The notes beneath the pieces are model-generated. The model did not search any database. It worked only from the letters and a program-made list of their open reading frames with translations, and had not been told where the DNA came from. This document shows, piece after piece, positions 2,190-44,411 of a DNA stretch of 60,320 bases (position 1 is the first letter of the stretch; each line of letters begins with the position of its first letter). Made by a program: the position numbers and the translations under genes. This DNA is from an uncultured bacterium (lineage in GTDB: Bacteria > Krumholzibacteriota > Krumholzibacteriia > WVZY01 > JAKEHA01). The stretch covers positions 1-60,320 of the forward strand of contig CAZULB010000002.1 of assembly GCA_964621155.1 (NCBI GenBank). Reading direction: 5' to 3'.

Positions 2190-2221
2190 CATGACTCCTC
2201 CCTTAACCGGGGGGAGTCATG
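2190..2221 (+). promoter_or_regulatory. 13-bp hairpin sequestering the SD and ATG of the nuclease gene
   Basis: CATGACTCCTCCC-ttaacc-GGGGGGAGTCATG. The 3' arm contains the only purine-rich SD (GGGGGGAG) and the ATG at 2219. Confidence 0.35.
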
Positions 2222-4192
2222 TTTTTTTCCGCCTTCGTTTCTGCCGTTTCGTCTCTATTCGTGGCCGCGGCGCCTCACGTCTCCATCATGGAGATACAGG
2301 GCCTGTCCCACATTTCTCCATATTCTTCGGATTCGGTCTCCACATCGGGAGTCGTCACGACCGTCACGCGCGACGGGTTCTTTGTGCAGGACCCGTTCGG
2401 AAATGCCGACGACGCGACCTCCGACGCGGTGTTCGTCTACACCGGTGTCGCCCCCTCGGTGCTGGCGGGCGACGATGCAGGCGTGGAAGGCGTCGTGCAC
2501 GAGTACCTGCCGGGCAACGACGCCTCGAACTTGACGGTCACCGAGTTCGATCATCCCCGGGTTTTCGTGACTGCACACGGGCGGCCGTTGCCTGCTCCAA
2601 TCCGCTTGTCGCCGGACGGACGTCGCGCACCGTCGGATCTTCATGACGCCGTCGACTTCTACGAGGGACTGGAAGGCATGCGCGTTACGCTGGTGGCGCC
2701 GCGCGTCGTGCAGCAGACCAATGTGTTCGGCGAAGTGTGGGTGGTGCCGGGCGGGTTGGAGACCTCGCCGCGCGGCGCGCTCGCGGCGGCGCCGAATGTC
2801 TTTCATCCGGAGCGTGTGCAACTGGACGATGCACGGCTTGCGACCGCGATGCCGGACTTCGCAGTGGGTGATGTGCTCGCCGATGTGACGGGCGTGGTCA
2901 CGTACAGTTTCGGCAACTATGAGGTGCTGGTCGACTCCCCGCCGGTCAAACGTTCCGGCGCCCTGTCGCGCGAGGTGACCACGCTCGCGGCCGCGTCCGG
3001 TCGCGTGCGCATTGCGTCCTTCAATCTCTACAACCTGACGCGCATCGAGACCGCTCGCATGGATGAGATTGCGCGCGTCATCGTATCGCACCTGGGGTCT
3101 CCCGACATTATCGCCGTGGAGGAGATTCAGGACGATAGTGGCTCACTTGATGACGGCACCGTCGAGGCGAGCCTCACCCTCACTGCACTCACCGCCGCCA
3201 TCCGCCACGCCGACGGGCCTGCTTACGACTTTCGCGAGGTGCTCCCCGTCAACCATCAGGACGGGGGCGAACCCGGCGGAAATATCCGGGTGGCCTTTCT
3301 GTTCGATCCGGCGCGGGTCAACTTCGTGGATCGCGGCGATTCGTTCGGCAGCGCGGAAACACGGGTTGTCGGCGTCGACGGGCGCCCTCGCCTTACGCGC
3401 AGTCCCGGGCGCATCGATCCTACCAACGACGCCTGGGAGCAGTCGCGCAAACCGCTGGTGGGAGAGTTTCGCATCGGTGCGCAAACTCTGTTCGTGATCG
3501 CGTGTCATTTCGTGTCGCAAACCGGGTCGACGTCGCTGTTCGGCGCGATACAACCGCCCTTCGATCCCGGTGCCGCGCAGCGCCTCGCCCAGGCACAGCG
3601 TGTCGCGCGTTTCGTACTCGACATCTACGCCATTGATTCCGGCGCGCGCGTGGTGGTGCTTGGTGATCTCAACGACGATTGGTTCTCCCCGATCATGGGA
3701 GCGCTGGAACAGGCGCCTCTCACCGGCCTCTGGCGCACTATAAATGAGCAAGATCGCTACTCACTCCTCTTTGATGGCCTGGCACAGGAGTTCGACCACA
3801 TCCTCGTGAGTCCGGTTCTCGCGCCCGGCGCCCGGTTTGACATCGTTCACGTCGCGGCCGAGTTTGCCAATGGCGTGAGTGATCATGATCCGGTGATAGC
3901 GTCAATCCGCGTCAGCGAACCCGACGCCCAACGCGGAGAACCGACGCCGACCATCTCCCCGCCGGCCCCCAACCCCTTCAACGCGACAGTCGAGTTGCGA
4001 GTCACCGGAGCGTCACACGCCCACATTTTCGATGTCGCAGGACGGAGAGTCAGGACCGTAGCGGTCCTGGACGGGGCAGTCACATGGAATGGAAAAGACG
4101 ACGCCGGCCGCAACGTGCCGGCCGGCGTCTATTTCGTCCGCGTGTCGGATGGGGTTTCGACTCGCGCACGCAAAGTCGTATTGATGCGCTAG
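2219..4192 (+). CDS. Secreted endonuclease/exonuclease/phosphatase (EEP) family nuclease with T9SS-type C-terminal domain
   Basis: It has a signal peptide (MFFSAFVSAVSSLFVAAAP) and EEP motifs IASFNLYNL, IIAVEEIQDDSG, VVLGDLND and SDHDPVIASI. The C-terminus is PAPNPFNA..FDVAGRRV..GVYFVRV..KVVLMR. Confidence 0.8.
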   Translation: MFFSAFVSAVSSLFVAAAPHVSIMEIQGLSHISPYSSDSVSTSGVVTTVTRDGFFVQDPFGNADDATSDAVFVYTGVAPSVLAGDDAGVEGVVHEYLPGNDASNLTVTEFDHPRVFVTAHGRPLPAPIRLSPDGRRAPSDLHDAVDFYEGLEGMRVTLVAPRVVQQTNVFGEVWVVPGGLETSPRGALAAAPNVFHPERVQLDDARLATAMPDFAVGDVLADVTGVVTYSFGNYEVLVDSPPVKRSGALSREVTTLAAASGRVRIASFNLYNLTRIETARMDEIARVIVSHLGSPDIIAVEEIQDDSGSLDDGTVEASLTLTALTAAIRHADGPAYDFREVLPVNHQDGGEPGGNIRVAFLFDPARVNFVDRGDSFGSAETRVVGVDGRPRLTRSPGRIDPTNDAWEQSRKPLVGEFRIGAQTLFVIACHFVSQTGSTSLFGAIQPPFDPGAAQRLAQAQRVARFVLDIYAIDSGARVVVLGDLNDDWFSPIMGALEQAPLTGLWRTINEQDRYSLLFDGLAQEFDHILVSPVLAPGARFDIVHVAAEFANGVSDHDPVIASIRVSEPDAQRGEPTPTISPPAPNPFNATVELRVTGASHAHIFDVAGRRVRTVAVLDGAVTWNGKDDAGRNVPAGVYFVRVSDGVSTRARKVVLMR

Positions 4193-5807: not shown

Positions 5808-6473
5808 ATGAGCAACTCTTTTTGCATAACCCTCGTCCTCGTGGGCCTCTTGGCCGTTGCAAAACCCGCACGCGCCGACCACACGCAGATATTCTCGATC
5901 CAGGGCGCCGAGTGCGCCAACGTGCAGACCGAGATGGGTCCGTACTTCAAGAAGGCCGGCATCAAGAAATGGTCATACGACAAGGACAAGTTCGAGTTCA
6001 CCATCACCGCTCCCGACAAAGTCACTGACGACGACGTCGTGAAGCTGTTCGAGGAGCAGGGCTGCTTCCGCGCCATTCCCGGCGCCGGTCACGGTGCCCT
6101 CTCATCCGCGTACAAGCCTGAGCCGTATCCGGAAGGCTCCGACATGAAAATTGTGTCGGCGAATGGAGAAGCCGTCGGTGATCTCAAGAAGCTTCGGGTG
6201 GAAGGCAAGTACACCGTGCTCGATTTCTACGCCGATTGGTGCGGACCGTGCCGTCTCGTCGATGCCCAGCTGCGCGAGATTGCCGGCAAGCGCGACGACG
6301 TGGCCGTGCGCAAACTCAACATCGTCGGTTTCGAGTCAGAACTTGCGAAGGAGCTCGGGCGCAAGTTGAAAGCACTCCCCTACGTCGTTATCTACGATCC
6401 CGACGGCAAGAAGACAGAGATCACCGGTAACAGTCCCGACAAGATTGCCGAAGCGCTCGGCACCAAAGAATGA
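5808..6473 (+). CDS. Secreted thioredoxin-domain protein (WCGPC) with N-terminal ferredoxin-like domain
   Basis: The start was chosen at ATG 5808, which gives the signal peptide MSNSFCITLVLVGLLAVAKPARA. The thioredoxin motif is DFYADWCGPCR. The longer ORF from 5661 has no signal logic. Confidence 0.8.
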   Translation: MSNSFCITLVLVGLLAVAKPARADHTQIFSIQGAECANVQTEMGPYFKKAGIKKWSYDKDKFEFTITAPDKVTDDDVVKLFEEQGCFRAIPGAGHGALSSAYKPEPYPEGSDMKIVSANGEAVGDLKKLRVEGKYTVLDFYADWCGPCRLVDAQLREIAGKRDDVAVRKLNIVGFESELAKELGRKLKALPYVVIYDPDGKKTEITGNSPDKIAEALGTKE

Positions 6474-7447
6474 TGCGGCGCGCCGCGGCGCTCGCGGTGA
6501 TCGGCGCTCTCGCGCTCGCCTTCTCTCCCGGTACCGGCTGGACTTGAGCGGGCTGAAGCAATCCCAACCTGCCGGTCGGCGGGTTCTCACTGATTCCGCC
6601 GGATCCGGGAACGTGGTCGTTCGCGACATCGCTCGTCGCGGCCAAATTCAATATCGAGCACATCGCCGACGACGAGCCCGAGAATCCAACCCCGTACTGG
6701 CACCTGCAGACGTTGCTCGTAACGGAACTCGATGTTTCGATCAGCCGTGGTGTGGGCACGGGCCTCGCGCTGCAGCTGAATGTGCCGTTGCGCGCCGTGC
6801 GCAGTCGCGTTCACTACGAGACGCTCGACCGCGAGCCGTTCACACCCAACGAGCCCGACAACCATCATCGCAACGAAACCCTGTACGGAATCGCGGATCC
6901 GGCGGCAGCCGTTCACTACGGATGGAAAGGCGCCACGTGGATATTCTCCACACGCGTCGGGGTTTCGATTCCACTCGGAAAGACCGAACCCAATCCCTTC
7001 GAGCTCGGCCGCCAGGGACTTCAGCATCAGCACATTCAATTTGGAAGCGGGACGTTCTATCCCGTGCTGGGCATGGGGGTAGGGCGATCGATCGGCGCAT
7101 ATGACCTGCATTTGACCGGTGTCGCGCGCCTGCCGCTCTATGACAATGAGCACGGCTACAGGCCCGGCGCACGCTACGGCGCGCTCCTCGGCGCGGGGCG
7201 CAAGTTCGCCACACGCTGGACCGCAAGCACTGATTTCGCATTCCAACACGAGGAAGCCGAGACGTGGAACGGTGTCGTGGAAGAAGAAGGCAACCTCGGC
7301 CGCGACGATCTCCTCCTGTCACTCGGTCTCGGCTACGATACCGACGCGGGCATCGTGAGCTTTAACATACAGTTCCCGCTGGTCAGCGAAAGTGCCGGCG
7401 ACCAGGTGGAGATTCCGCTCGTCATGGCGCTGGTGTGGGAGTACTAG
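6473..7447 (+). CDS. Outer-membrane beta-barrel-like protein interrupted by two in-frame TGA codons (candidate UxxU selenoprotein; otherwise a pseudogene)
   Basis: The ATG at 6473 overlaps the thioredoxin stop (tgATG). The signal peptide MRRAAALAVIGALALAFSPGTGWT is followed by TGA(6545) GCG GGC TGA(6554). The same frame then stays open and protein-like to 7447. The C-terminus LVMALVWEY resembles an OMP beta-signal. There is no ATG/GTG/TTG between 6557 and the TTG at 6713. Confidence 0.45.
6566..6585 (+). promoter_or_regulatory. SECIS-like hairpin (8-bp stem, GGUC tetraloop)
   Basis: The sequence is AACCUGCC-GGUC-GGCGGGUU. The loop sits at nt 21-24 from the U of the second UGA, compared with a GGUC loop at nt 22-25 in the E. 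coli fdhF SECIS. Confidence 0.4.
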
Positions 7448-9819: not shown

Positions 9820-10185
9820 TCAGGCAACCAGGCGATGACCGGCCCACACAGCGCCCAGACCGATCCCATTGCTGAGCAGCACGTAACCGGCGGCGGCCAG
9901 CCAGTCGTGGGTGTGAGCGAGCGAGTAGCCTTCCAGCGCAAAGCTCGAGAACGTGGTGAAGCCGCCCAGGAATCCCACGATGACAGCAAGACGCACCGCC
10001 GGTGAAACCAGCGCCTGTTTTTCAACAGAGCCCGCCACAATTCCAATCAACAAGCCGCCGACCACGTTCACCGCGAATGTTCCCCACGGATACGTTCCGT
10101 CCGTCATGTTGAGCACCCAGCGACCGAGCGCGTACCGGCACAGTGTCCCCAGCGCACCCGCGAGTGCAATCCACATAACCGTCAT
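9820..10185 (-). CDS. crcB: Fluoride ion channel CrcB/FluC
   Basis: It has four TM segments and the motif GFLGGFTTFSSF. The ATG at 10185 is preceded by GGAGG, and a fluoride riboswitch lies immediately upstream. Confidence 0.9.
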   Translation of the reverse strand: MTVMWIALAGALGTLCRYALGRWVLNMTDGTYPWGTFAVNVVGGLLIGIVAGSVEKQALVSPAVRLAVIVGFLGGFTTFSSFALEGYSLAHTHDWLAAAGYVLLSNGIGLGAVWAGHRLVA

Positions 10186-10200
10186 TCCACGACCTCCAAC

Positions 10201-10277
10201 AAAAAACTCCTGCACGCTCTAGCGCACAGGAGTCATCAGCCGCTCGCGCGGCGGTTCAGGCGAACTCCATCGCCCTG
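10201..10277 (-). promoter_or_regulatory. Fluoride riboswitch (crcB motif) with intrinsic-terminator expression platform
   Basis: The minus strand reads GGGCGAUGGAGUUCGCCUGAACCGCCGCGCGAGCGGCUGAUGACUCCUGU, matching the GGCGAUGG.GUUC.CC...AACCGCC...GGCUGAUGA..CCU consensus. It is followed by CUCCUGUGCGCU-AG-AGCGUGCAGGAG plus UUUUUU, which overlaps the aptamer 3' strand. Confidence 0.9.
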
Positions 10278-10404
10278 TGTTCCTCATCGTTCCTCAAAAG
10301 GTAGCGTTGTTCCTTCGCGGCGGTCAACAATCTTCAAGAAAATGCATGAGGACGGCAGAAATTGCCGCTCGATGTGTTATCATTTTGTTGTCGGGGTTGT
10401 TGTG

Positions 10405-12847: not shown

Positions 12848-12999
12848 CTAGTGAGCTCCGGAGTTGGGGGCCAGACTCGGGAGCATGCTATCTCACCACC
12901 AACGCCCCCTCAACCTGACAATGAACCGACGCCGGTTGCTTCGAAGTCCCCACAATTGGTAGCATGGAGTGCCAGCCACACAACATCCCGGAGGCACCC

Positions 13000-14670
13000 A
13001 TGGTTCGCGCACTTGCTGTGGTCGTACCCCTGCTACTCCTGACCTTCTTCTCTATTTCTCACGCGGCCTGGACCGACGACGGGAACATCGTGTGTTCCGC
13101 CGCCACGCACCAGTACGGGCCTGTCGCCACTCCGGACGGCGCCGGCGGTGCGTTCATCGCGTGGACGGATCCGCGCACGGATACCGGGGACATCTACATC
13201 CAGCGCGTGAACAGCGCGGGTGTGGCGCAGTGGGCGGCCAACGGCGTCGCGGTATGTTCGGCCACGGGCGCGCAGGACTACGTCGCCCTGGTTGCGGACG
13301 GCGCTGGCGGGGTCATCGTTGCGTGGTCGGACGTTCGCGGCGCAACCTTCTACGACATCTACGCCCAGCGCCTGAACGGCGCGGGCGTGCCCCAGTGGGC
13401 GGCCAACGGCGTCGCGGTATGCGTGGCCGCACGCGGGCAGTATTACCCGAAGCTCGCCGATAACGGCGCGGGTGGCGCCATCGTCACCTGGTACGACGAC
13501 CGCGCGAGCAACGCGGACGTGTACGCCGCACGTCTCTCCGCAAGCGGGCTCACTGCGGACTCACCGAACGGGGTTGCGATCTCGACCGGCGCCACGTCGG
13601 AGACTCCGAGTTCCATCATGCCGTTCGGCGCGGGTGGCGCTCTCATCGCGTGGACGGACGCGCGCCACGGCGCGTTCGACATCTACGCGGCGCGCTTCTC
13701 GAGCGCCGGCACTCTGCTCGATGCCGCCGGTATTCCAGTCTGCCAGGCGGCCGGCGACCAGGAATACCCCGCGTGTGTGAGCGATGCCGCCGGCGGTGCC
13801 ATCATTGCCTGGTCCGACAGTCGCCTGGAAACGATCTATGCACAGCGCGTGAATGCCAGCGGCGTCATCCAGTGGGGCGTCAGTGGCCTGCCGGTGGGCG
13901 ACGGCGGCACGGGCGCGATTTTTCAGCTACCGCAGGTAGTTGCCGATGGCGCGGGTGGAGCAATCATTTCGTGGATGGATTTTGACGGCGACTACGACAT
14001 CTACGCGCAGCGCGTCAACGGCGCCGGTGCGCGGCAGTGGGTGCCGAACGATATCTATGTTTGCAACCAGGGCAGCGAGCAGCGCACACCGGTGATTGCT
14101 CCCGATGAATCCGGTGGTGCCGTGATTGCATGGCGCGACAAGCGCAACCTGTTCACAGGCTATGACGTCTTCGCGCAGCGCGTGAACGGCGCCGGAGCCG
14201 CGCAATGGACGGCCAACGGCGTCGCGGTGTGCGACGACGTATTCGATCAGGACGAACTCTCTCTTGTATCCGACGGTAGCGGCGGCGTCATCTGCGCGTG
14301 GAAGGACAAGCGTGATTTCCAGAACTACGACATCTACGCCATGCGCGTAGGCTCCTCCGGACAAACGCCCACGACGGTGCGGGAAGCCGCGGTGCCCGCT
14401 TTCGATATGAGCGCTGCCTGGCCCAATCCGTTTTCCGGGGAAACGTCGTTCGATGTGCGGAGTGACTGGCACTCCAACGTGGTTGTCAATCTGTTCGACG
14501 CCGCCGGGCGCCGCGTGCGTTCGCTTTCTATGGCGTCGCCCGCAGCATCGCGTCGCATCGTGATCGATGGCCTCGACGATCGTGGCCGCACGCTCCCCAG
14601 CGGCGTCTATTTCTGCCGCGTCGAAGTCGGGGACGCGGTTCGCAGCCAAAAACTCATTCTCGTTCGATAA
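13000..14670 (+). CDS. Secreted 8-repeat (about 53-55 aa, propeller-like) protein with T9SS-type C-terminal domain
   Basis: GGAGG is followed by the ATG at 13000, and the signal peptide is MVRALAVVVPLLLLTFFSISHA. Eight repeats have the form W..NGV.VC.......P....DG.GGAI.AW.D.R....DIYAQRVN..G..Q. The C-terminus is AWPNPFSG..LFDAAGRRV..GVYFCRV..KLILVR. Confidence 0.8.
   Translation: MVRALAVVVPLLLLTFFSISHAAWTDDGNIVCSAATHQYGPVATPDGAGGAFIAWTDPRTDTGDIYIQRVNSAGVAQWAANGVAVCSATGAQDYVALVADGAGGVIVAWSDVRGATFYDIYAQRLNGAGVPQWAANGVAVCVAARGQYYPKLADNGAGGAIVTWYDDRASNADVYAARLSASGLTADSPNGVAISTGATSETPSSIMPFGAGGALIAWTDARHGAFDIYAARFSSAGTLLDAAGIPVCQAAGDQEYPACVSDAAGGAIIAWSDSRLETIYAQRVNASGVIQWGVSGLPVGDGGTGAIFQLPQVVADGAGGAIISWMDFDGDYDIYAQRVNGAGARQWVPNDIYVCNQGSEQRTPVIAPDESGGAVIAWRDKRNLFTGYDVFAQRVNGAGAAQWTANGVAVCDDVFDQDELSLVSDGSGGVICAWKDKRDFQNYDIYAMRVGSSGQTPTTVREAAVPAFDMSAAWPNPFSGETSFDVRSDWHSNVVVNLFDAAGRRVRSLSMASPAASRRIVIDGLDDRGRTLPSGVYFCRVEVGDAVRSQKLILVR
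13072..14364 (+). repeat. Eight tandem coding repeats, period about 159-165 nt
   Basis: For example, a 29-nt identical block CAGTGGGCGGCCAACGGCGTCGCGGTATG occurs at 13228-13256 and 13393-13421, with a near copy at about 14205. Confidence 0.8.
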
Positions 14671-18971: not shown

Positions 18972-21900
18972 CTACTTCAGGAGCACCATCTTCCGGGTCT
19001 TGGTGAACCCCGGGGCCTCGAGGCGATAGAAATACACGCCACTCGCCACGCCCTGTCCACGCGTATCGCGCCCGTCCCACGGCACCTCGTGGGATCCGGC
19101 TGGGCGGTTCTCATCGACAAGCGTCCGCACCAGGGCACCACTGACATCGTAGACCTTCAGTGTCACCTGTCCCCTTTGCCTGATTGAAAACGCGATCATC
19201 GTCGTTGGATTGAACGGATTGGGATGGTTCTGCGACAGCTCATTTCTGAACGCGGGACCCGCGCCCACCGGATACGTTACCAAGTTCCCGAGGCAAGTAA
19301 TGATCTTGTAAAGAAACAGGTTCCGGTCCCAGACACCATCGAGCTCGTCGTCGCGAATGTGCGAGAATGAAATGCCCGAAAGAATCACGCCCCCGTTTCC
19401 AGTAAAGTTGGATATCACAGCACCGTTTGCGCCAGAAGTCGAGCCATAGGACATCTCCACTTTCGATGTCCCCTGCGCCGTCATTACATCGAACGCATCC
19501 AAACCGGGGCACCCTCCAAATGCGACCCAGTCGTCATCGAAACACCGGCCGGGCCATGCATACAGCTTGGGCGATACTGGATAGTTGGTCGGTGCGAGCC
19601 GGTGATTCCCGCTACCGATGTTGAACGGAATAAATGCATTCCGGAAATCATTCGCACAGGCAATTTGGGAACCTGCAATGAAAGCGGGAACATTATCTCC
19701 TGCGAGAAATACGCCACCCGGAAGCGTCAGACCCGACACGAATTCACTCAACAGGCAGAGATCGGGCGACTTCTCCGGCGTTCCGGAACCATCACCGACG
19801 GTCACCTCAAGGGTCCCGCAGTCCCAGATGATCTTCCGGTATCGTGCGAGCAACTGGTTCACGTTCTTGACGCGACTACCCAGGCGGTTCCCCACAGCCG
19901 ACGAAGGCGCGCGGACGTCAAATCGGTCTACCTTTCCGGTCAGACCTATCGATCTGAACGACGAATCGAAATATTCCTGGCCCGGAATGCCGTCCGTCCC
20001 ATCCACATAAAGGATGTCGCCGCAGCCGCTTGCACAAAGTGTCGGCAAACACGTGAACTCCGCAGCGTCGAGCGCGGCCGCCACCGGATCAACACCAGTG
20101 AGGTTGAGATGTGCACCGTACGCGAACGTCTCTAACCCCAACCCGTTCTCCGCGCCATAGAAAAAGAGTACTGTGTCACCCGGTGTGAAGTAGCAATCAT
20201 TGAGGTCGACGCAGTACTCGCCCGGCTTGCAGCCGTCATCCAACCGGATGCGATCCCAAGTTCGGTAGGCCAGCGTGGTCGAGCCAACCCAGGGGTATCG
20301 CGCTGGGTTGTCGGTTAGCGCAGGTCCCGACTTCGCAGGCCCATTTCCATTCTGCACACTCACATAGAGATAAACGGCCGGCCCGCCGGTTCCCGGATCT
20401 GTGCCGATTCCGGACTGACAATCGCCGACCATGACAACCGCCGAGTCGCCCGGAACAATCGAAGTCGTGGAGCTCACCGGCGTGATATCAGCGGCCATGT
20501 CTGCGCGCACGCATCCGGTAATCGTGCCATTTTCGGGGAAGTTGTCCTGAAACTGGTTCATGTCATGGATGATCCATTGCGGTCCCTGCAGCGCGACCCT
20601 GAACACCTTCACGTTGTCGAACAACGGAGCGTGGCTGTGACACACATCGGTTCCAATGGTTCCGCACCAGGCATCACACATGTCGCGAACACCGAGTGCA
20701 ACCTGAATGTCCGTCGCACCCGAATCGACCAACGGACCGAGTACTTCCAGATGCGTAATCCATTCCTTCAGGTGCCCATAGTAGACAAGGTTCTTGTCAC
20801 GCCAGGGCCCCCAGTTCCCCCCCACCTTGCTTCGCACGTGCCACGTGTAGAACACGAGATTCTGATACGACAGATCGCGATAAACAGAAAACTGGAAACC
20901 GAGGTTCTGACACCCACTCCCGATTGGTATGGATGGCGACCATATCTCGTTTCGAACGTACCGTTGTTGCGCATCATGGCGCGGCACGACCATCTGCGCA
21001 GGTGATGGAGGCGCATTGCAGGCGTAACTTTCCGTAGATGTGTTGATGAACGCCCACAGACAGGAGAGACTGCTGACGCAGGGATCCTCCTGGAGAACAC
21101 CGCTCTTGAACAGTCCCGCAAAGTCGCCGCGGCCAGAAAGATCGACAGACGTCCAGCCCTGCACGTTGCAGTTCGAGCCCGTGTTGAACCTCGATAACAG
21201 GAGCACCGTCGTGTCACCGGCAGCGGTGGACTGAGGCGTGTACACGTGCATTCGCGTCATTGACGTATTAGTGCAAGAACCTTCATTGCCAAAATCACCG
21301 CGCGCGACCTCGCCCCTGTACAAATTGAACGTGTGAACGCCGGAGATCGGGAAAGTTCGATGCCATCCGGGCTGCAGGAACTCGCTGACGGCATACGTCC
21401 CTTCCGAGAGACCGGTAAAGTAATAGTTGCCATGACCGTCGGAGCTGGTGGTTGCACCCGATGAGAGATTCACCGTCCAGCCGGGCAGAATAGATTCGCT
21501 AGCGTCCTTCACCCCGTCCTGATCGAAGTCATACCAGACTTTCCCCATGACGATGTTGTTTGCGCCGCTGCAGCAGTAGCCGGTCTTCACGAGGTTGCCC
21601 TGAACCAGTCCGCTGACATCCAGGCCAAGGACAGACGCTTGGTTTGTGAGCACAACTTTCAGTACGTTGGTACCATTGATGAAGAACGACGAAGTCGAGA
21701 TGTGATACGCCGGTCCAGGCTGGAACGAGTTGGTTGTAGTTCCAATCTGATTCCCGTTCAAATACACATTCGCTATATTGTCGGCGCGAACCCACAAATT
21801 CAACGCGGCACTCGTCGTGGTCTGAAGGCAGAACTTGTACTCGAGGCTATACGTGAGATTGCCAGAGGTCGCGTTCACAGATTCGTACGGGCTGATCCAC

Positions 21901-22793
21901 TGTGACCCCGATTCGGGAGGAGCCCACGAGGCGTACTGGGGGATAACATATGCGGGGCGCGGCTCAGACGTCGAAGGATCGTCGTCGGCCACAACCATCC
22001 ACTCCGAATCGATGGAGCTGAGAAGCGTGCCATGCAGCTGATCCCATCCAGAGGCGACTTCGACGGCGTTCACCGGCTCGCACGCAAGCAGTACGTCCGC
22101 GGGAATTCTGAAGATCAGGTATTCCCGGTCGTTGTTTGGGTTGTAGTGGAAAGCGTCCGCTACGGCGGTGGTTTGATACCACATCCATCGCGCCGCACCG
22201 TCGAGGCACGAAATCGCCGGGAATACATCCGAGCTTGTGTTGTCCTGACCAATCGCCAGCACGCCAGAATACCCGGACACCGGCGTTGTGCCAACCCAGC
22301 CCACGCTTGTGTTCGCTCCGCCCGTTCCAGCATTCGCAATGGCGAGCTGGGCATTAATTTGTGAAATGGTTGGCGGAGTGTCGCCGCAGTCCATGGACAC
22401 GCCGGTTGCGTAGACCTCCCAGGGGCCGACTCCGGTATAGACCACGGCAGTAGTTCCCACCTTGAACTGGGCGATGACGCCCTGGGTACCCCCGTTGTCG
22501 GCCCATCCGATAATATAGAGATAGGCACCACTGGAGACGTCGATGGAATAGTGCTCGACCCCCCCTGATCCACATCCGAAGATATTGCTTGGACTCGTGT
22601 TGCACAGGTTACCGTACGTCTGCGCAATCGCCGTGGCGCTACCGTAGGCGAACGAGTAGCCGTTGTCGCACGTGATATCGACGTTCACGTTCGTTGACCA
22701 CGCACGCGGAGAGATGAGGAGCACCGAAAGTAGAATGAGAAAAAAGCAGACGACTGGAAGGGCCACACAACGGGATGTGTTGTGAGACATCAT
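18972..22793 (-). CDS. Giant (~1270 aa) secreted protein of unknown function with SdrD-B/CnaB-like module and T9SS-type C-terminal domain
   Basis: The start is near GAGG-tca-ATGATG (22793/22790), with signal/anchor ALPVVCFFLILLSVLLISPRAWS. It contains GKVWYDFDQDGVKDASE..GWTVNL.....SDGHGNYYF..L..GTYAV, an SdrD B-like module. The C-terminus is NHPNPFNP..VYDVSGALV..GVYFYRL..RKMVLLK. The gene is visibly more AT-rich than its flanks. Confidence 0.8.
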   Translation of the reverse strand: MMSHNTSRCVALPVVCFFLILLSVLLISPRAWSTNVNVDITCDNGYSFAYGSATAIAQTYGNLCNTSPSNIFGCGSGGVEHYSIDVSSGAYLYIIGWADNGGTQGVIAQFKVGTTAVVYTGVGPWEVYATGVSMDCGDTPPTISQINAQLAIANAGTGGANTSVGWVGTTPVSGYSGVLAIGQDNTSSDVFPAISCLDGAARWMWYQTTAVADAFHYNPNNDREYLIFRIPADVLLACEPVNAVEVASGWDQLHGTLLSSIDSEWMVVADDDPSTSEPRPAYVIPQYASWAPPESGSQWISPYESVNATSGNLTYSLEYKFCLQTTTSAALNLWVRADNIANVYLNGNQIGTTTNSFQPGPAYHISTSSFFINGTNVLKVVLTNQASVLGLDVSGLVQGNLVKTGYCCSGANNIVMGKVWYDFDQDGVKDASESILPGWTVNLSSGATTSSDGHGNYYFTGLSEGTYAVSEFLQPGWHRTFPISGVHTFNLYRGEVARGDFGNEGSCTNTSMTRMHVYTPQSTAAGDTTVLLLSRFNTGSNCNVQGWTSVDLSGRGDFAGLFKSGVLQEDPCVSSLSCLWAFINTSTESYACNAPPSPAQMVVPRHDAQQRYVRNEIWSPSIPIGSGCQNLGFQFSVYRDLSYQNLVFYTWHVRSKVGGNWGPWRDKNLVYYGHLKEWITHLEVLGPLVDSGATDIQVALGVRDMCDAWCGTIGTDVCHSHAPLFDNVKVFRVALQGPQWIIHDMNQFQDNFPENGTITGCVRADMAADITPVSSTTSIVPGDSAVVMVGDCQSGIGTDPGTGGPAVYLYVSVQNGNGPAKSGPALTDNPARYPWVGSTTLAYRTWDRIRLDDGCKPGEYCVDLNDCYFTPGDTVLFFYGAENGLGLETFAYGAHLNLTGVDPVAAALDAAEFTCLPTLCASGCGDILYVDGTDGIPGQEYFDSSFRSIGLTGKVDRFDVRAPSSAVGNRLGSRVKNVNQLLARYRKIIWDCGTLEVTVGDGSGTPEKSPDLCLLSEFVSGLTLPGGVFLAGDNVPAFIAGSQIACANDFRNAFIPFNIGSGNHRLAPTNYPVSPKLYAWPGRCFDDDWVAFGGCPGLDAFDVMTAQGTSKVEMSYGSTSGANGAVISNFTGNGGVILSGISFSHIRDDELDGVWDRNLFLYKIITCLGNLVTYPVGAGPAFRNELSQNHPNPFNPTTMIAFSIRQRGQVTLKVYDVSGALVRTLVDENRPAGSHEVPWDGRDTRGQGVASGVYFYRLEAPGFTKTRKMVLLK

Positions 22794-23136
22794 TGACCTC
22801 GTCGTTGAAAGTGAAATGCACCGGGCTCGCAAAAATCACAATCACCGAAAGGCCGAATGATATCTGTTCGGCAAACGATCGTTCAACATGAAACTACACG
22901 TGTGTGTGCTTGCATGCGAACCTGAGAAATGATTCTCCATTGATTCCACGCTTGGACATGTGTCATGATTTTCCGACGGGCGATCTATCCGCGCCCAACC
23001 TCTTCGGTTCTCCTCCGGCGGGGACCTTCGTGAGGCAAAGGGGGGCATACTCCCGGATAAACCATCGTCGACTTTGGTCGCCGACGTGCGCGCCGCCGGA
23101 GGGTGCTCGCGACGGCGTGCCCAAAGGAGACGAACC

Positions 23137-25395: not shown

Positions 25396-26022
25396 ATGAG
25401 GAAAAATCCATTCTGCCTCGCGGCGGCCGTGGCGCTGGCCGGGCTCGCGGGATCGGCGCAAGTTCGGGCCGCCGACCACCGCGAAACCCCGGCCACGCTC
25501 GCGGACGCCGTGGCGGACATCGCTGATGTCTACACGTGGAAGGACGGCGATCGCTTCGTCGTCGTGATGACGGTCGACGGGTTACGCATGCCGACGCCCG
25601 GGCAGGCAGCGCGCTTCGACGAAGACGTTCGCTATGAGTTTCACATCGGGCGCGATTCCTTCGCCACCACGCGACAGTCCGCCGTGGACATCGTGGTGCG
25701 CATGAAGCAGGCGAACGGCAACTGGACCGTCACGGCCCAGGGCATCCCCGGCGCCAACGGCACCGTGACCGGCAACGCCGAAAGCGTGCTCACCAAGGGT
25801 TCGGCGCATGTTTTCGTGGGACTGCGCGACGATCCGTTCTTCTTCGACCTCGAAGGTTTTCGCAACACGCTTATGACGGGCACACTCATGTTCAATTCGG
25901 CGCGCGACACGTTCGCCGGCATGAACGCGACTGCCATTGTGATCGAGATGGACCTGAACGCCGTCAAGAGCGGCAGCAACAAGCTGTACGTGTGGGGCAC
26001 GACGGCACGAAAGGATGGCTAA
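25396..26022 (+). CDS. DUF4331 N-terminal-half protein, secreted
   Basis: It has a signal peptide, and the mature N-terminus ADHRETP...DIADVYTW matches the DUF4331 opening motif (SDHREAP..D..D.Y.F). Confidence 0.7.
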   Translation: MRKNPFCLAAAVALAGLAGSAQVRAADHRETPATLADAVADIADVYTWKDGDRFVVVMTVDGLRMPTPGQAARFDEDVRYEFHIGRDSFATTRQSAVDIVVRMKQANGNWTVTAQGIPGANGTVTGNAESVLTKGSAHVFVGLRDDPFFFDLEGFRNTLMTGTLMFNSARDTFAGMNATAIVIEMDLNAVKSGSNKLYVWGTTARKDG

Positions 26023-26024
26023 CC

Positions 26025-26591
26025 ATGCGCACCACGCACTTCCTATTGGCGGCGCTGGCGGTATCGGCGCTGAGCGCCTGCTCGGAGGATTCCCCGATGT
26101 CGGGCAACTCCACGTTGCAGAAAACGCCGGCGTCCTACACGCGCATCGACCGGATGGGCATGCCCGCCGTGGCGACCGCACTTATCACCAGCAAACAGAA
26201 CTACAATGAGGCTGATCCGACTGACGATGCGGCGGGTGATTTCGTCCCTGAGATCGTCGACCACCTGACCACATTGCACAACGCGCTCGACGACGACCTC
26301 ACCGGGCTCGGTCTCACACCGGCCACGGTGAACGAAGCCGCGGCGCAGGGTGCGCCGCTGGTGGTGCCGGATGTCATCACGGTGGACACGAACGCGCCGT
26401 CGGGCTTCCCCAACGGCCGCCGTCTCGCCGACCCCGTGATCGACGTCACGCTCGCGGTGCTGCTGCTCGACGTGAGTGGTCTCGGCGACAGCAACGGCCC
26501 GCATCCCGCCACCGCGCTGGTGGGCGTAAATCCGACGGCGAACGACGCTCCGTTCTCCACCATGTTTCCCTTCCTGGCGCAGCCGCATTAG
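26025..26591 (+). CDS. DUF4331 C-terminal-half-like lipoprotein
   Basis: It has a lipobox (LSAC). The motifs IDRMGMPAVATALI...YN..DP and FPNGRRLADPVIDVTLAVLL match DUF4331 C-terminal motifs. It starts 2 nt after the previous stop. Confidence 0.7.
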   Translation: MRTTHFLLAALAVSALSACSEDSPMSGNSTLQKTPASYTRIDRMGMPAVATALITSKQNYNEADPTDDAAGDFVPEIVDHLTTLHNALDDDLTGLGLTPATVNEAAAQGAPLVVPDVITVDTNAPSGFPNGRRLADPVIDVTLAVLLLDVSGLGDSNGPHPATALVGVNPTANDAPFSTMFPFLAQPH

Positions 26592-32615: not shown

Positions 32616-34715
32616 CTAGCGCACCACAACGAACTTCTTCGTGCTGTGTCCCTGGGCGCTCGCGAGCCGCAGGAAATAGACGCCCGAGGCCAGTTGCCCC
32701 GTATCCAGGTCGAACGTCTGCAGACCTTTCTCGGCGTTGGTGCGCGCGGCGAGCACGCGTTTGCCGGCAATATCGAACACCTGAACGTCCACCGGGCCGT
32801 CGCGGTCGACGGTGTACTGGATGGTGAGAGCACCCCGGGTGGGAACCGGACTCAGCGATGAGATGGCCGGATAGGCGGGCACGTTGGCCGCGAGTGCGAC
32901 CACGTTGTCGCTGCGCAGGATCTTCTTGTCAGGATCGACGAGCACCTCGAAGGGAGCCTGCGGCACCGTAAACGTAAACGTCTGCGACCGCAGGTTGTTC
33001 TGCACCGTCTCCCGGTGAATCTCAACCAGCGAATCGGCCGGCAACATGTCGTAAACGACAATATCCACCGGCATCTTGAACACGCTCACGTTCGACTGTG
33101 ACGGCGTCTGCTGCTGTTGAATCGTCACCTTTACTTCATAGTTGCCGCCGCCGACATCCTTCCACGATGTGGCCGCCGCGTAGCGTGGGTATCCCGTGCC
33201 TGTCGTCACCCACTGGCTGAAAAACGCATCGAGGTCGAGGCCGGACACCTGCTCGGCCACACGCTGAAAGTCGGCCGTGACCGCGTTGCCGTAGCGCACA
33301 GCGGGATCGGCTGCATAGGCCTGCAGGATCTGCTTGAAGACGTCGTCGCCGACCATGTTACGAAGCATGTACAGAACCATGCTTCCCTTGGCGTACACGC
33401 GATACCCGTCAAACATGTCGTTCACGGAAGTCGTGTCCTGCAGCACGAGCGTTCCGGTGGCGCGTCGCGCGCTGCGGTATTGCTGGTCGCGCGCAATCTT
33501 GTACGAGTCCGGAAATTGAACCGGTCGGGCTTCCCAGTAGAGCAGCTCCGCGTACGACGCGAAGCCTTCAGCCAGCCACAGGTGCGGCCAGCGCTTGACC
33601 GTGATCTTGTCGCCGTACCACTGATGCGCGAGTTCGTGAACGACCACGCCCGTGGAGCCGCCGCCGATTGACGACATGGTCTGATGCTCCATGCCACCCG
33701 GAAATGTGAACTCGGAGTGTCCGTACTTTTCAACGCCGTATTGTGGATCGGCAAACGGATACGGCCCGAACCAGCCTTCCTCCACCTCGAGCGCATCGCC
33801 GGTTAGCGTCCAGCCATCGTTGTTCCTCGTGCCAGGGAGCTCATTGGTGATGTCGTCATAAACCAGAAACTCGAGCGGAAGCGCAAGCGGGCCGTAGCCG
33901 GGAAGTCCTGCCAGCGCGGCCGGGCGATTGTAGGTGTCCTGGTAGCGCACGTACTCACCAATGGCCACCGAAATCAGATAGCTTGAAATCCTGTAGTGCG
34001 ACACCCAGTCGTAGACCGTGTTGGGGCCGATAGTGGTTTCACCAACCAGCAATCCGTTGGAACCGACTCGATACAGCGACGGCACCGTTACGGTAACGCG
34101 CGACGAGTCCGCCTTGTCGGACGGATGATCCTTGCACGGCCACCATTCGCGCGCGCCGTACGGCTCGGACAGACTCCACGCCAGACGCATTTCGTTGCCC
34201 GGGCACGGCGAAATGTTGTTGCGGCATTTCTTCCCGAAGAAGAAGTTCCCGAAGTCGTCGCTCACAGGAACACCACGATACGCGATATCCACCGCAACCA
34301 CAGTGCCCACCGGTTGTGACCCCGGCAATGTGATATTGAGCGCCGCGCCGGGATGGGTGAAAGCGAGCGCGCCGCCGCCGGCAGCATTCACCGACGTGAC
34401 AAGCATCGACGGCGCCAGATCGAGGGTCAGTGTGGTGAGGCTCGAGTTGACGACACGTCCTTCGACGCGCACGACGCCCACAATCGAGTCGTCATCCATG
34501 GCGATGTTCAGATTCAGATGATAGTAGGTGGCGTCGAAATTCGAACTGGCTGCGGAGGAGCTGTAGCGCGCGGTACGACTTGCGAAGGCGACCTTCGCGG
34601 CCTGGCAGGCTTCGGCACCGCTTTCGACTCTCCGGGGAGGCGCCGCGTGTGATGAAACGACGGGCAGGGATAGAGACAGCGCCAACGTTGCGGCAGTAAG
34701 AATCCGTCCGGGCAT
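32616..34715 (-). CDS. Secreted M1-family zinc aminopeptidase with T9SS-type C-terminal domain
   Basis: It has GGMEHQ (GxMEN-like) and HELAHQWYGD...WLAEGFASY (HExxH-18-E). The C-terminus is VFDIAGKRV..GVYFLRL..KKFVVVR. Confidence 0.9.
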   Translation of the reverse strand: MPGRILTAATLALSLSLPVVSSHAAPPRRVESGAEACQAAKVAFASRTARYSSSAASSNFDATYYHLNLNIAMDDDSIVGVVRVEGRVVNSSLTTLTLDLAPSMLVTSVNAAGGGALAFTHPGAALNITLPGSQPVGTVVAVDIAYRGVPVSDDFGNFFFGKKCRNNISPCPGNEMRLAWSLSEPYGAREWWPCKDHPSDKADSSRVTVTVPSLYRVGSNGLLVGETTIGPNTVYDWVSHYRISSYLISVAIGEYVRYQDTYNRPAALAGLPGYGPLALPLEFLVYDDITNELPGTRNNDGWTLTGDALEVEEGWFGPYPFADPQYGVEKYGHSEFTFPGGMEHQTMSSIGGGSTGVVVHELAHQWYGDKITVKRWPHLWLAEGFASYAELLYWEARPVQFPDSYKIARDQQYRSARRATGTLVLQDTTSVNDMFDGYRVYAKGSMVLYMLRNMVGDDVFKQILQAYAADPAVRYGNAVTADFQRVAEQVSGLDLDAFFSQWVTTGTGYPRYAAATSWKDVGGGNYEVKVTIQQQQTPSQSNVSVFKMPVDIVVYDMLPADSLVEIHRETVQNNLRSQTFTFTVPQAPFEVLVDPDKKILRSDNVVALAANVPAYPAISSLSPVPTRGALTIQYTVDRDGPVDVQVFDIAGKRVLAARTNAEKGLQTFDLDTGQLASGVYFLRLASAQGHSTKKFVVVR

Positions 34716-34725
34716 CGTTTGACCT

Positions 34726-36480
34726 CTATTTCAACAGAACGACTTTGCGGTTCATGCGGGACTGTCCGGCGCTGAGCTTGAGCAGGTAGACGCCGGATGC
34801 GAGCGGCGCGCCCGCATCATCCACGGCCTGCCACCGGAACGAGTGGGCACCGGCCGTACGTTGGTCGTCCAGGAGAGTGGCGACACGGCGCCCGGTTACA
34901 TCGTACGCCGTAATGGTTACGTGGACTGGACGCGTCAGGTCAAAGTTGATCGTGGTGGCCGGATTGAAGGGGTTGGGATATGCCACCAGCGATGCGGCAT
35001 CCGGCATGCGCGGGGTGTCATTGACGCCGGTGGGTATTGCATTTCTCGCCGCGAGCGCGTCGATGACGCCCCACCCGTAGGTGCGATTGGGGTTGGCGTG
35101 ATTGGTGGCGGTGTTGCGCAGCGCGTTCATGAGCATGATGTTGCTGGCGTCGGGACGAGCCTGCAGCACGAGCGCGGCGGCGCCGGCGACGAGCGGTGTC
35201 GAGAGCGACGTGCCGCTCACCTCGGTGTAGAACTCGCTGTTGGGATCGACGGTGTGCACGTTCGATCCCATCGCCATCACGTCGGGCTTGATGCGATTAT
35301 CGGTGGTGTTACCGACCGAGCTGAAGCTGGCGCGCGTGCCCTGGTTGTCGGTCGCCCCCACCGTGAGCACCATGTCGCCGTCCGCGGGAGCGCCGAGCGT
35401 ATTCTGCGGCTCGGAGACAAACCCGGCATTGCCCGCCGCGTTGCAGATCAGGATGCCGCGGCTGGCCGCAATGTCGGCGCCCACGGTAATAATGGCGGTG
35501 TCGCCGTCCATGTTCTGCCAGGTATAGCCGGTTTCGCCGTTGGTGAATCCGCCCAGATACGTGAGGGAACTCGTGATGATGTCGGCGCCGTTGTTGTCGG
35601 CCCATTCGGCAGCCGCCACCCACGCGTCTTCTTCGATGTGGCGCTCCCACTGGGTGTTCTCTGTCTTGGCGAGCAGATATGTCGCGCCGAACGCAGGACC
35701 AATCAGCTCGCCCGGTTTGAAACCCGCGATGGCACCGAGCACGAGCGTGCCGTGGAAACCACTCCCCATCTGCCCCGGCTCATCGCTCACCACGCCGTCG
35801 TTGTTCACGAAATCCCACTTCGCCGCCACGTTGAGAACACCGAACGCTTCGTGGAGTGCGTTGTTGAAGCCGGTGTCGAACACGGCGATGACGACACCCT
35901 CCCCGTGAAACCCAAGGTCGTGCATGGCGGGAACGTCGATCAACAAATTCTGGAAGAAAGAACTGCCGTAGTCGTAACTGAGGTTCTGCTGCCGGAGCGC
36001 GCGCATAGGCTCGCGCGATGGCCCCTGCGTCCCGGGATCCGGCTCGGAGGAGCGCAGCGAATGCACGATGTCGAGACGGGACACCGCGCGCAGCGCCGTA
36101 ATTGCTTGCAACTGCTCCGCCGTAGCATCGACCGACACAGCATTCAGCCAATTCGAAACATGACGAACGTGTGCGCCGGTGGCACGAACCGCTTCCAGCG
36201 CGGTGGCGTCCACGGGGACATCGTAAGCATCCACGAGATGACCTTTGCCCATGTTGCGCTCACGACGCGCGCGGGCGTGATCGCTCAGCGCGGCTTCGGC
36301 AGCACCGAGTGCAGCCGGCGTGATGCGCTTGTCTTCAAAGTAGACCCAGGCGGGGATGGTGGCGCCGCTGGGCGCCGCGAGCAATGCTTCGTTGAGTGGC
36401 TGCGACTTCGTCGCGGCGGACACGACACACGGGAACACCAGCGCGAGTAACAACGCCATGCGGATCGTGTGCCGTGTCAT
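34726..36480 (-). CDS. Secreted S8 subtilisin-family serine protease with T9SS-type C-terminal domain
   Basis: The catalytic triad contexts are VIAVFDTGF (D), HGTLVLGAIAG (H) and SGTSLSTPLVAGAAAL (S). The signal peptide starts at ATG 36480 (MTRHTIRMALLLALVFPCVVSA). The C-terminus is AYPNPFNP..AYDVTGRRV..GVYLLKL..RKVVLLK. Confidence 0.9.
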   Translation of the reverse strand: MTRHTIRMALLLALVFPCVVSAATKSQPLNEALLAAPSGATIPAWVYFEDKRITPAALGAAEAALSDHARARRERNMGKGHLVDAYDVPVDATALEAVRATGAHVRHVSNWLNAVSVDATAEQLQAITALRAVSRLDIVHSLRSSEPDPGTQGPSREPMRALRQQNLSYDYGSSFFQNLLIDVPAMHDLGFHGEGVVIAVFDTGFNNALHEAFGVLNVAAKWDFVNNDGVVSDEPGQMGSGFHGTLVLGAIAGFKPGELIGPAFGATYLLAKTENTQWERHIEEDAWVAAAEWADNNGADIITSSLTYLGGFTNGETGYTWQNMDGDTAIITVGADIAASRGILICNAAGNAGFVSEPQNTLGAPADGDMVLTVGATDNQGTRASFSSVGNTTDNRIKPDVMAMGSNVHTVDPNSEFYTEVSGTSLSTPLVAGAAALVLQARPDASNIMLMNALRNTATNHANPNRTYGWGVIDALAARNAIPTGVNDTPRMPDAASLVAYPNPFNPATTINFDLTRPVHVTITAYDVTGRRVATLLDDQRTAGAHSFRWQAVDDAGAPLASGVYLLKLSAGQSRMNRKVVLLK

Positions 36481-36481
36481 T

Positions 36482-37576
36482 TCACATGCTCCCTGTCCAC
36501 TGGTCGCCGTCGGAATCACCAAGGCACATGTGCCAGCGCTCGAGATCTTTCACCCAGTCGGCAGGCATGACCTGTTGCCAGTTTGCAATCACCCATGCGT
36601 TGCGCGAGCCACCGGCCACGAACCCCAGCTTCTGGAGCGCGTTGACGGCAAAGGCCTGCGTCGAGATGGCGGCCACGGCGTCGATGCCCGCGTCGGACAC
36701 ATCGATCAAAACGCGGGAAACCATCTCTTCGAGAGTGCGCGCGTCGCCGCGCGCCACCAGAAAATCGGCAATGACAGCGCGGCTCTCCGCGTAGCCCGCC
36801 GGCGCAGGACGCCAGATCATGTAGCCCGCGGGCTTGTCGCCCCGGGTGGCCACAATGACGCGGTAGTCGAGAACGGGGTGCTCCGCATACTTCCAATTAA
36901 CGTAGGCGGCATCGCGCACGCGAGTGACATCGTAGGTCTTCGCCAGCTCGAGCCACCCGGCGTCCAGCGCGGGATCCATCCGCTCCACCACCGAGAGCGT
37001 ATTGCGCGCGTCACCCAGCGTTTTTCTGGCCCGCGCCAGCGCCTGCATGCGCTTGACGCCCAGTCCGGCCCGCCCCACCGCCGCCTTGATCGGCGAGAAG
37101 CCGCGGCGCGACGTGAACGAAGCCGGGTCGAGCACGGCCGTGTACGTGACCAACTCCGTCACGTCGTCGAATCCCATGCTCTGATGAATCTTCCAGCACG
37201 CGCCCGTCATCCACATGCCGCCCGGATAGAAATCGCCGAGCTCGCGCGCGTATCCGACGATCACCTTGCCCAGTCCGCCGCCGCGATACTCGGGGTCGAC
37301 CAGGAGATCGTGCGTGTATCGCGACGCAATGCGCTTTCCGCCCACGAGAAAATCGACGGGCATGTGCCCGAGAGTTCCGGCCACGACGTCGCCATCCATC
37401 AGCACGTGGCGCAGCGGCGTGCGCTCGCGGCCCGGCATGCGCTCGTGGTAGGTGTCAATGACACGCTGGCGGCGCGCGCACACATCGGCGCCCAGCACCT
37501 TCTCGGTGAAGCGTTTGAGCGCCGGCTCATGGTGCTCGCGATCGTAGGCGACCACAGGAAGCGTCTTGACGCTCAT
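36482..37576 (-). CDS. GNAT-family N-acetyltransferase (double-domain, 364 aa)
   Basis: The acetyl-CoA motif is YRGGGLGKVIVGYA. Its stop lies 1 nt before the S8 start, and its ATG overlaps the deacetylase stop (ATGA). Confidence 0.7.
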   Translation of the reverse strand: MSVKTLPVVAYDREHHEPALKRFTEKVLGADVCARRQRVIDTYHERMPGRERTPLRHVLMDGDVVAGTLGHMPVDFLVGGKRIASRYTHDLLVDPEYRGGGLGKVIVGYARELGDFYPGGMWMTGACWKIHQSMGFDDVTELVTYTAVLDPASFTSRRGFSPIKAAVGRAGLGVKRMQALARARKTLGDARNTLSVVERMDPALDAGWLELAKTYDVTRVRDAAYVNWKYAEHPVLDYRVIVATRGDKPAGYMIWRPAPAGYAESRAVIADFLVARGDARTLEEMVSRVLIDVSDAGIDAVAAISTQAFAVNALQKLGFVAGGSRNAWVIANWQQVMPADWVKDLERWHMCLGDSDGDQWTGSM

Positions 37577-44283: not shown

Positions 44284-44411
44284 GTGTCGGACTCCCCGGT
44301 TAGGTGTATCACATTATAATAGGAAGGGCGTCCGTACGGCAACGTCGGTGCGTTTGACAGTCTCCCGGCGCGTGCCGATATTCGAGAGCTTCAACCAGAC
44401 AGGTGTTCATC

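Follow-up and report, generated by a model that had tools for sequence, protein, structure and literature searches.

Two in-frame TGA codons interrupt an otherwise open and protein-like reading frame at positions 6473-7447 of a 60,320-nucleotide stretch of DNA from an uncultured bacterium (contig CAZULB010000002.1, assembly GCA_964621155.1; the whole stretch is called the window below). The question raised by this locus is whether these codons are stops, errors or sites of selenocysteine (Sec) insertion. An original prediction, made from the sequence alone, had proposed a Sec-containing protein following a gene for a secreted thioredoxin. Based on the comparisons given below, the two TGAs are almost certainly real selenocysteine codons, in a family of outer-membrane channels that is widespread among soil bacteria. 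The region 6473-7447 very probably represents one exported selenoprotein gene, in which both UGAs are read as Sec with the help of a single Sec insertion sequence (SECIS) inside the coding sequence, and whose product is an outer-membrane barrel forming a module with the thioredoxin.

Reading frame of the candidate gene

The locus consists of the following features:

5808-6473 (+): partner gene, encoding a thioredoxin domain with WCGPC together with a signal peptide and an HMA-like domain that is degenerate (Pfam, conserved adjacency)
6473-7447 (+): candidate selenoprotein gene of 324 codons and a stop, with a signal peptide, a U-A-G-U motif and a predicted 12-stranded outer-membrane barrel
6473-6544 (+): signal peptide MRRAAALAVIGALALAFSPGTGWT (frame translation; in-frame start and hydrophobic stretch in relatives)
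6545-6547 (+): first UGA, Sec 1 (Cys at the equivalent position in C-x-x-U and C-x-x-C homologues)
6554-6556 (+): second UGA, Sec 2, the anchor position for Sec (always TGA in the Sec-form loci, both the 62 tabulated and L011)
6566-6585 (+): putative SECIS hairpin, stem 6566-6573 / 6578-6585, loop GGUC 6574-6577 (fold energy, covariation, fixed codons)
6557-7444 (+): predicted barrel domain of 296 aa (PF13557, AlphaFold, Foldseek, invariant columns)

The stop codon of the thioredoxin gene (TGA, 6471-6473) shares bases with the ATG at 6473-6475 in the sequence ATGATG. The frame opened by this ATG encodes MRRAAALAVIGALALAFSPGTGWT and then reads TGA (6545), GCG, GGC and TGA (6554). Beyond the second TGA it continues as SNPNLPVGGFSLIPPDPGTWSF..., starting with the residues SNPNLPVGG, over 296 open codons to the stop at 7445-7447, with LVMALVWEY at the C-terminus. 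The earliest ATG, GTG or TTG in frame past the second TGA is the TTG at 6713, and the signal peptide at 6473-6544 is part of the barrel product only if both TGAs are read through. All these elements, namely the stop/start overlap, the signal peptide followed by TGA-GCG-GGC-TGA and an open frame, the C-terminal ending and the first downstream start, had been listed in the original prediction and could be read directly in the sequence. TGA had also been described there as a genuine stop elsewhere, and of the 28 genes with Pfam support in the window 8 do use it as their ordinary stop, among them the one directly upstream, so that a global reassignment of TGA does not apply.

Cysteine and selenocysteine in the homologues

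When the portion downstream of the second TGA was used as query, a protein search revealed 78 relatives. About 50 closer ones (roughly 40-87% identity) are represented by gene calls of 180-300 aa which start inside the conserved region. The distant relatives (33-38% identity) have a length of 336-370 aa and carry a signal peptide followed by A-C-A-G-C-S-N-P-N-L-P. Their C-A-G-C aligns exactly with the TGA-GCG-GGC-TGA of the window, both preceding SNPNLP (P0052-P0077 and 19 loci), and full-length homologues thus show a signal peptide and a Cys pair at precisely the position where the proposed selenoprotein has its two TGAs. Upstream of two of the short gene calls, the DNA contains an in-frame signal peptide followed by TGA-CCG-GGC-TGA or TGA-GCC-GGC-TGA, and both loci continue with AGC AAY CCN AAC CTG CCG GTC GGC.

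A set of 83 loci from about six phyla was compiled from a scan of one genome per GTDB species (80 loci), the window, two metagenome contigs and the locus L011; L003 repeats L002 and was left out of the counts of forms. Among the 83, the U-x-x-U form was present at 48 loci including the window, the C-x-x-U form at 15 and the C-x-x-C form at 19, while no locus had the form U-x-x-C. Since CxxU occurs and UxxC does not, the second codon would be the primary Sec site and the first would have been recruited later to the same hairpin. The 62 Sec-form loci besides the window (47 UxxU, 15 CxxU) belong to Eisenbacteria, Acidobacteriota, Verrucomicrobiota, Dormibacterota and Myxococcota. Carriers of U-x-x-U include metagenome-assembled genomes that bear the labels Eisenbacteria, Vicinamibacteria and other Acidobacteriota, Udaeobacter, Dormibacterota and many Myxococcota. 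Among those of C-x-x-U are isolates of Archangium gephyra, A. violaceum, Pyxidicoccus and Myxococcus. Genomes with the gene are A. gephyra CP102578.1 and JBMEQQ01, A. violaceum JPMI01, Pyxidicoccus caerfyrddinensis JAAIYA01 and Myxococcus sp. JAIQDG01. The loci closest to the barrel of the window are labelled Eisenbacteria and Acidobacteriota. Ahead of the motif, 61 of 62 Sec-form and 18 of 19 Cys-form loci have an in-frame start with a hydrophobic stretch, and behind it the frame stays open for at least 250 codons in all tabulated loci.

Two variations of the region were observed. In the acidobacterial locus L011 (2822-3020) the U-A-G-U is followed by TSPNLPVGG instead of x-NP-x-L, so that some variation is tolerated behind the Sec pair, with P-V-G-G retained. 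The C-x-x-C forms P0053-P0074 contain an extra Cys pair, H-[SP]-E-x-C-P-[DE]-I-G-P-I-C (alignment columns 73-88), as an insertion between strands 1 and 2 of the barrel, and the clade of the window is without it.

The hairpin downstream of the second UGA

In E. coli fdhF the SECIS is a hairpin in the coding sequence just past the UGA, with an apical GGUC loop at nt 22-25 after a gap of 18 nt and with a bulged U in its stem. The hairpin of the window, AACCUGCC GGUC GGCGGGUU (6566-6585), has the same loop on an 8-bp stem with -12.0 kcal/mol when folded alone. Counted from the U of the UGA, the loop lies at nt 21-24 for the second codon and at nt 30-33 for the first, corresponding to gaps of 17 and 26 nt. 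The spacing of the second UGA (17 nt) is close to the 18 nt of fdhF. The window hairpin differs from that of fdhF in its short and perfect stem of 6-8 bp, which lacks the bulged U, and in the presence of one hairpin for two UGAs located 9 nt apart. The stem and the loop position were as described in the original prediction.

The hairpin segment codes for N-L-P-V-G-G, and the core conserved in the family corresponds to 6568-6583. All 62 tabulated Sec forms have a GGUC-looped hairpin of 6-8 bp located 17 nt past the second UGA, and it was seen in none of the 19 Cys forms. After NP-x-L, the same 62 Sec forms all encode P-V-G-[G/R/K], with Pro always CCG and Val always GTC. P-V-G occurs in 0 of 19 Cys forms, whose codons vary at these positions.

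Covariation was tested on an ungapped alignment of 59 distinct Sec-form sequences with 500 shuffles. The GGUC loop and the two C-G pairs closing it were invariant across the 59 sequences. The pair 33-42, formed by the third bases of the Leu and Gly codons, was CG in 34 sequences, GC in 20, UA in 4 and GU in 1, and was never unpaired; the compensatory synonymous changes were CUG:GGC, CUC:GGG and CUU:GGA (Leu:Gly). Changes were also found at the outer pairs: the next-but-two pair was CG in 50, UA in 5 and GC in 4 sequences, again without an unpaired case, and a further outer pair changed from AU to CG or GC where Asn/Ser is replaced by Thr/Ala or Ser/Gln. The covariation score was 0.293, compared to 0.113 +/- 0.010 for the shuffled alignments, none of which (0/500) scored as high, and in a control with the 3' partner slid by 1-3 columns it was at most 0.043. 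Two of the covarying sites are synonymous positions, which places the constraint at the level of the RNA rather than the protein. The hairpin in turn holds the residues that come after the Sec motif to P-V-G-[G/R/K].

No other TGA with a GGTC-looped hairpin inside an open frame was found in a scan of the window. A further short helix, formed about the second UGA by alignment columns 12-17 and 21-26, was considered and rejected, as it showed no compensatory changes.

Based on these data and on what is established for Sec decoding in bacteria, the following course of decoding is proposed. Ribosomes would start at the ATG at 6473, translationally coupled to the upstream thioredoxin gene, and would decode the UGAs at 6545 and 6554 both as Sec via the single bacterial-type hairpin at 6566-6585. 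SelB carrying Sec-tRNA would recognise the GGUC loop and deliver Sec to the second UGA at near-canonical spacing, and the same hairpin would serve the first UGA from 9 nt further away. The mature product would be a FapF/COG4313-type barrel whose N-terminal segment begins Sec-Ala-Gly-Sec. The history of the family would have led from C-x-x-C to C-x-x-U and then to U-x-x-U. Precedents exist for closely spaced Sec residues in UxU and UxxU motifs (PMC1976440, PMC13188914).

The predicted outer-membrane barrel

The window protein matched the Pfam model PF13557 (Phenol_MetA_deg) with an E-value of 6.7e-8 and 33.3 bits (cut-off 22); the Cys homologues P0074 and P0052 gave no match to this model. AlphaFold, run with an alignment of 66 sequences, returned a 12-stranded barrel for the 296 residues of the window, with a predicted local distance difference test (pLDDT) of 92.4 and a predicted template modelling (TM) score of 0.86, and a pLDDT of 88.7 for a full-length Cys homologue. 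The best matches found by Foldseek in the PDB were FapF (5o65) and the COG4313 channel Pput2725 (4rl8), with TM scores of 0.61-0.69. The product is accordingly modelled as a 12-stranded outer-membrane barrel of the FapF/COG4313 type. The family match, the modelled barrel and its structural neighbours agree with the outer-membrane protein of the original prediction, and the C-A-G-C of the homologues supports the U-A-G-U motif that had been placed at its mature N-terminus.

The likeness to the COG4313/PF13557 channels (Pput2725, 4rl8) and to FapF (5o65) includes the 12 strands, a mature length of about 270-320 residues, a segment ahead of strand 1 and the clustering of conserved residues in loops L2-L4 (PMC4493636). 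In the structure of Pput2725 the segment before strand 1 occludes the barrel lumen (PMC4493636), and it is in the corresponding segment that the motif [U/C]-x-G-[U/C]-SNPNLP falls. The alignment showed His-His, His-x-His, Glu, Trp and Gly/Arg motifs as invariant residues, and the conserved His/Glu-rich motifs are HHRNET, HQHIQFG[ST]GT, NEHGY and EExW.G..EEEGNLGR. From the predicted order of strands, the segments carrying the His/Glu-rich motifs may be assigned to the extracellular loops L2-L5. The family differs from these channels in sequence, with an identity of only about 12%, and in the [U/C]-x-G-[U/C]-SNPNLP motif, the invariant His clusters and the thioredoxin partner gene, which are undescribed for Pput2725, TcpY, SphA and FapF.

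The thioredoxin partner

The pairing with an exported thioredoxin, proposed for the window originally, was found to be a property of the family: in 72 of the 83 loci, the barrel gene is adjoined by a thioredoxin gene of the same strand. It ends 66-167 nt before the motif in 68 loci, follows the barrel gene in 4, and accompanies all C-x-x-C and C-x-x-U forms. Clustering of the open reading frames (ORFs) within about 7 kb revealed no further conserved neighbours. The partners carry a signal peptide and a CxPC-type thioredoxin motif, which is WCGPC in the window, where the partner (5808-6473) matched Pfam Thioredoxin with an E-value of 2.5e-10.

Two types of N-terminal domain were found in the partners. 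In the clade of the window it is an HMA domain with CxxC resembling MerP and CopZ; the partner at L001 (1083-1748) matched Pfam HMA at 4e-8 and the NCBIfam models MerP, UxxU_metal_bind and CopZ at E-values around 1e-6 to 1e-7. In Myxococcota and other loci (L014-L082; e.g. 9345-9983 of L026) the partners carry two C-x-E-H-x-V-P-x-x-x-C-x-x-C-H-P-x-L repeats and not HMA. These CxxCH-repeat domains gave weak matches only to cytochrome c7, NrfH and decahaem models, and the CxxCH of the Myxococcota-type partners is a haem-c-like or metal-binding motif.

About 66 of 70 partner genes (L001-L082) end in TGA shortly before, or overlapping with, the start of the selenoprotein gene. This may simply be due to stop codon usage in GC-rich DNA and to ATGA overlaps.

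Possible function

The Sec/Cys pair on the plug could form a redox-active and/or soft-metal-binding site. The periplasmic thioredoxin may keep this pair reduced, or may exchange metal with it via the HMA domain, and the His/Glu-rich loops of the barrel might supply the remainder of a metal or substrate path. The version with a metal relay is tentative and held with low confidence. The same low confidence applies to the complete picture of a channel with a diselenol (U-x-G-U) plug which is reduced or metal-loaded by an HMA- or cytochrome-like thioredoxin and encoded with one 20-nt SECIS working at two spacings. If true, the protein would be a redox- or metal-gated outer-membrane barrel.

Evaluation of the selenoprotein interpretation and its alternatives

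Several observations weigh against the reading of 6473-7447 as a selenoprotein gene with the above function. Among about 50 ORFs of the 60 kb window that were scanned with Pfam there was no SelA, SelB or SelD, and ARAGORN detected no tRNA-Sec in the window; nor was a tRNA-Sec detected by ARAGORN in the 82 related loci (within 10 kb). A check with curated RNA models did not back the hairpin, as no SECIS family of Rfam matched 6400-6750 at E<=10 and a chance RT-15 match was the only one. In the minimum free energy fold of 6540-6610 a competing pairing is favoured (z = -0.34) and the window hairpin alone is unexceptional. The single-sequence fold neither supports nor refutes the hairpin, the significance of which comes only from the comparison with relatives. 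Under the strict E. coli spacing the first UGA is too far from the loop, and its decoding is backed by conservation only. The original prediction had already pointed to this distance, which was confirmed as nt 30-33; the concern itself is answered only comparatively, by the presence of CxxU and the absence of UxxC. Regarding function, the N-terminal residues were modelled with low confidence (pLDDT around 50-76). The HMA-like domain of the window partner is degenerate and has lost its second Cys ('GAECANV', one Cys), and Pfam HMA was not detected in it, while the relatives keep CxxC. The functional proposal as a whole is inferred.

The alternative that survives best accepts the selenoprotein and assigns it another role, either as a redox switch (diselenide/diselenol) gating a channel for hydrophobic substrates or as a reductase site for an oxidant. 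COG4313 channels, which possess a plug at the N-terminus, have been tied to hydrophobic molecules and their uptake (PMC4493636). The classical WCGPC motif of the partner, the missing Cys in the HMA-like domain of the window and the CxxCH repeats with weak cytochrome-c-like matches, which take the place of HMA in Myxococcota, would also fit such a role. However, the invariant His/Glu clusters in the barrel loops (HH, HxH, EE..E) and the MerP/CopZ-like HMA domains of many partners point to metal handling. This redox role is a genuine possibility, held with less than even confidence.

For the locus to be a pseudogene or a conventional short gene, the TGAs would have to be real stops, with the barrel either dead or starting at the TTG at 6713 or later. 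Gene callers do shorten the gene everywhere, with a call of 231 aa in the window (P0002) and fragments of 260-300 aa in other assemblies, and the Sec machinery was not seen in the 60 kb window. A downstream start, however, would leave a barrel without signal peptide and without its first strand or strands. Moreover, the positions of the TGAs, the signal peptide ahead of them and the residues from TGA to TTG (SNPNLPVGG..PP.PG.W) are kept across phyla at about 35-55% identity, and 19 homologues have Cys at exactly these codons. This explanation is considered very improbable.

Equally little weight is given to a reading of UGA as Trp, Cys or Gly, whether through reassignment or through near-cognate suppression, in which the hairpin would be a generic stimulator of read-through and not a SelB site. 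The lack of a match of the hairpin to any Rfam SECIS model, and the negative search of the 60 kb window for Sec machinery, are compatible with it. On the other hand, TGA terminates 8 of the 28 confident genes of the window, the homologous residue is Cys, the classical counterpart of Sec, and the invariant GGUC loop with its 17-nt spacing closely resembles the SelB-binding loop of fdhF.

An assembly or sequencing error that turned TGC or TGT into two TGAs, conceivable in a metagenome-type contig, has a negligible probability, as more than 45 other loci share TGA-NNN-GGN-TGA, TGC...TGA occurs in isolate genomes of Archangium, Pyxidicoccus and Myxococcus, and both TGAs are present in the independent assemblies Logan ERR9963538 and ENA ERZ27256960. 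The loci in these two assemblies are close relatives with 87 and 73% protein identity, in which the TGAs, the hairpin and the ATGAT(G/C) overlap are kept and many other positions differ. A pseudogene or an assembly error had been left as a live alternative in the original prediction; since dozens of species, and assemblies made independently, retain the TGAs, artefact and pseudogene appear excluded as far as sequence can tell.

Relation to known selenoproteins

A review of May 2026 lists 119 prokaryotic selenoprotein families (PMC13188914, Table 1), and none of these 119 entries is a barrel of the PF13557/COG4313 type. NCBIfam release 20, including the 'seleno_' models, gave nothing at E<=1 for the window protein or two Cys homologues. 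The family is unmentioned in the deep-Sep and BSepDB papers, and no description of it was found in literature searches combining selenoprotein with PF13557, outer membrane, UxxU and the relevant taxa. In all assemblies and collections examined, the database copies are unnamed or called 'hypothetical protein' and are N-terminally shortened. Because it is absent from the list in PMC13188914 and from NCBIfam, the family is regarded as a new family of bacterial selenoproteins with Cys homologues and an in-frame SECIS. It would be a new selenoprotein family, not a new mechanism.

The outer-membrane entries of the review are a TonB-dependent receptor and a barrel of the MtrB/PioB family (PMC13188914). 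The FCYXU-type TonB-dependent receptor (NF049945) and the GSU2204/MtrB-PioB barrel (NF041027) are likewise Sec-containing outer-membrane beta-barrels predicted by Cys/Sec alignment (PMC13188914), but they are a 22-stranded TonB-dependent receptor and an MtrB/PioB porin with a single Sec each. U-x-x-U is represented in the review by a Prx-like oxidoreductase, an HMA-like protein that binds metal and a member of the FmdB family (PMC13188914). These proteins (the HMA/MerP-like NF041115, the Prx-like thiol:disulfide oxidoreductase and the FmdB-family protein) share with the present family the two Sec, three positions apart, replacing a CxxC (PMC13188914), and in their genes, too, one downstream SECIS presumably serves two nearby UGAs. 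They are, however, soluble proteins with a thioredoxin fold, an HMA fold or a zinc ribbon, whereas the motif described here is at the N-terminus of a predicted membrane barrel. The HMA-like fold sits here in the partner, which is itself no selenoprotein.

Once the Sec codons are recognised, the annotation of these genes regains a signal peptide and a conserved motif that resembles an active site. An envelope selenoprotein would be gained for Myxococcota, Acidobacteriota, Eisenbacteria and Verrucomicrobiota, four groups for which a full-text literature search returned no link to selenoproteins. The Sec pair would sit at the outer membrane, where a diselenol is unusual. A clean evolutionary series is formed by C-x-x-C, C-x-x-U and U-x-x-U, and the codon covariation shows a SECIS constraining the protein (P-V-G-G/R). 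One SECIS with two UGAs 9 nt apart also represents a natural experiment on the strictness of UGA-SECIS spacing. As the one-Sec (CxxU) form occurs in cultivable myxobacteria (isolates of Archangium, Pyxidicoccus and Myxococcus), experiments are feasible.

Other features of the window

The window also encodes an MsrA (44403-44987, +), which is the Cys form (GCFWC) and not a selenoprotein. The only Rfam match in the whole window at gathering thresholds is a fluoride riboswitch (RF01734, 55.5 bits) at 10220-10283 (-). It is located directly upstream of crcB at 9820-10215 (-), and this combination of riboswitch and fluoride channel gene is a standard arrangement.

Many large secreted proteins, among them M1 and S8 peptidases and a nuclease-like protein, have C-terminal sorting domains of the FlgD_ig or Por_Secre_tail type, which may indicate an organism of the FCB group or one resembling Eisenbacteria. 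They are encoded at the following positions:

14-2047: FlgD_ig / Por_Secre_tail protein
2219-4192: FlgD_ig / Por_Secre_tail protein
12964-14670: FlgD_ig / Por_Secre_tail protein
18972-22832 (-): FlgD_ig / Por_Secre_tail protein
32616-34715 (-): FlgD_ig / Por_Secre_tail protein
34726-36522 (-): FlgD_ig / Por_Secre_tail protein
42196-44283 (-): FlgD_ig / Por_Secre_tail protein

A homologue of DUF4331 is divided over two overlapping ORFs in different frames, 25396-26022 (+) and 25992-26591 (+), which cover profile positions 156-237 and then 244-421. This suggests a frameshift, be it that of a pseudogene, an assembly indel or a programmed one.

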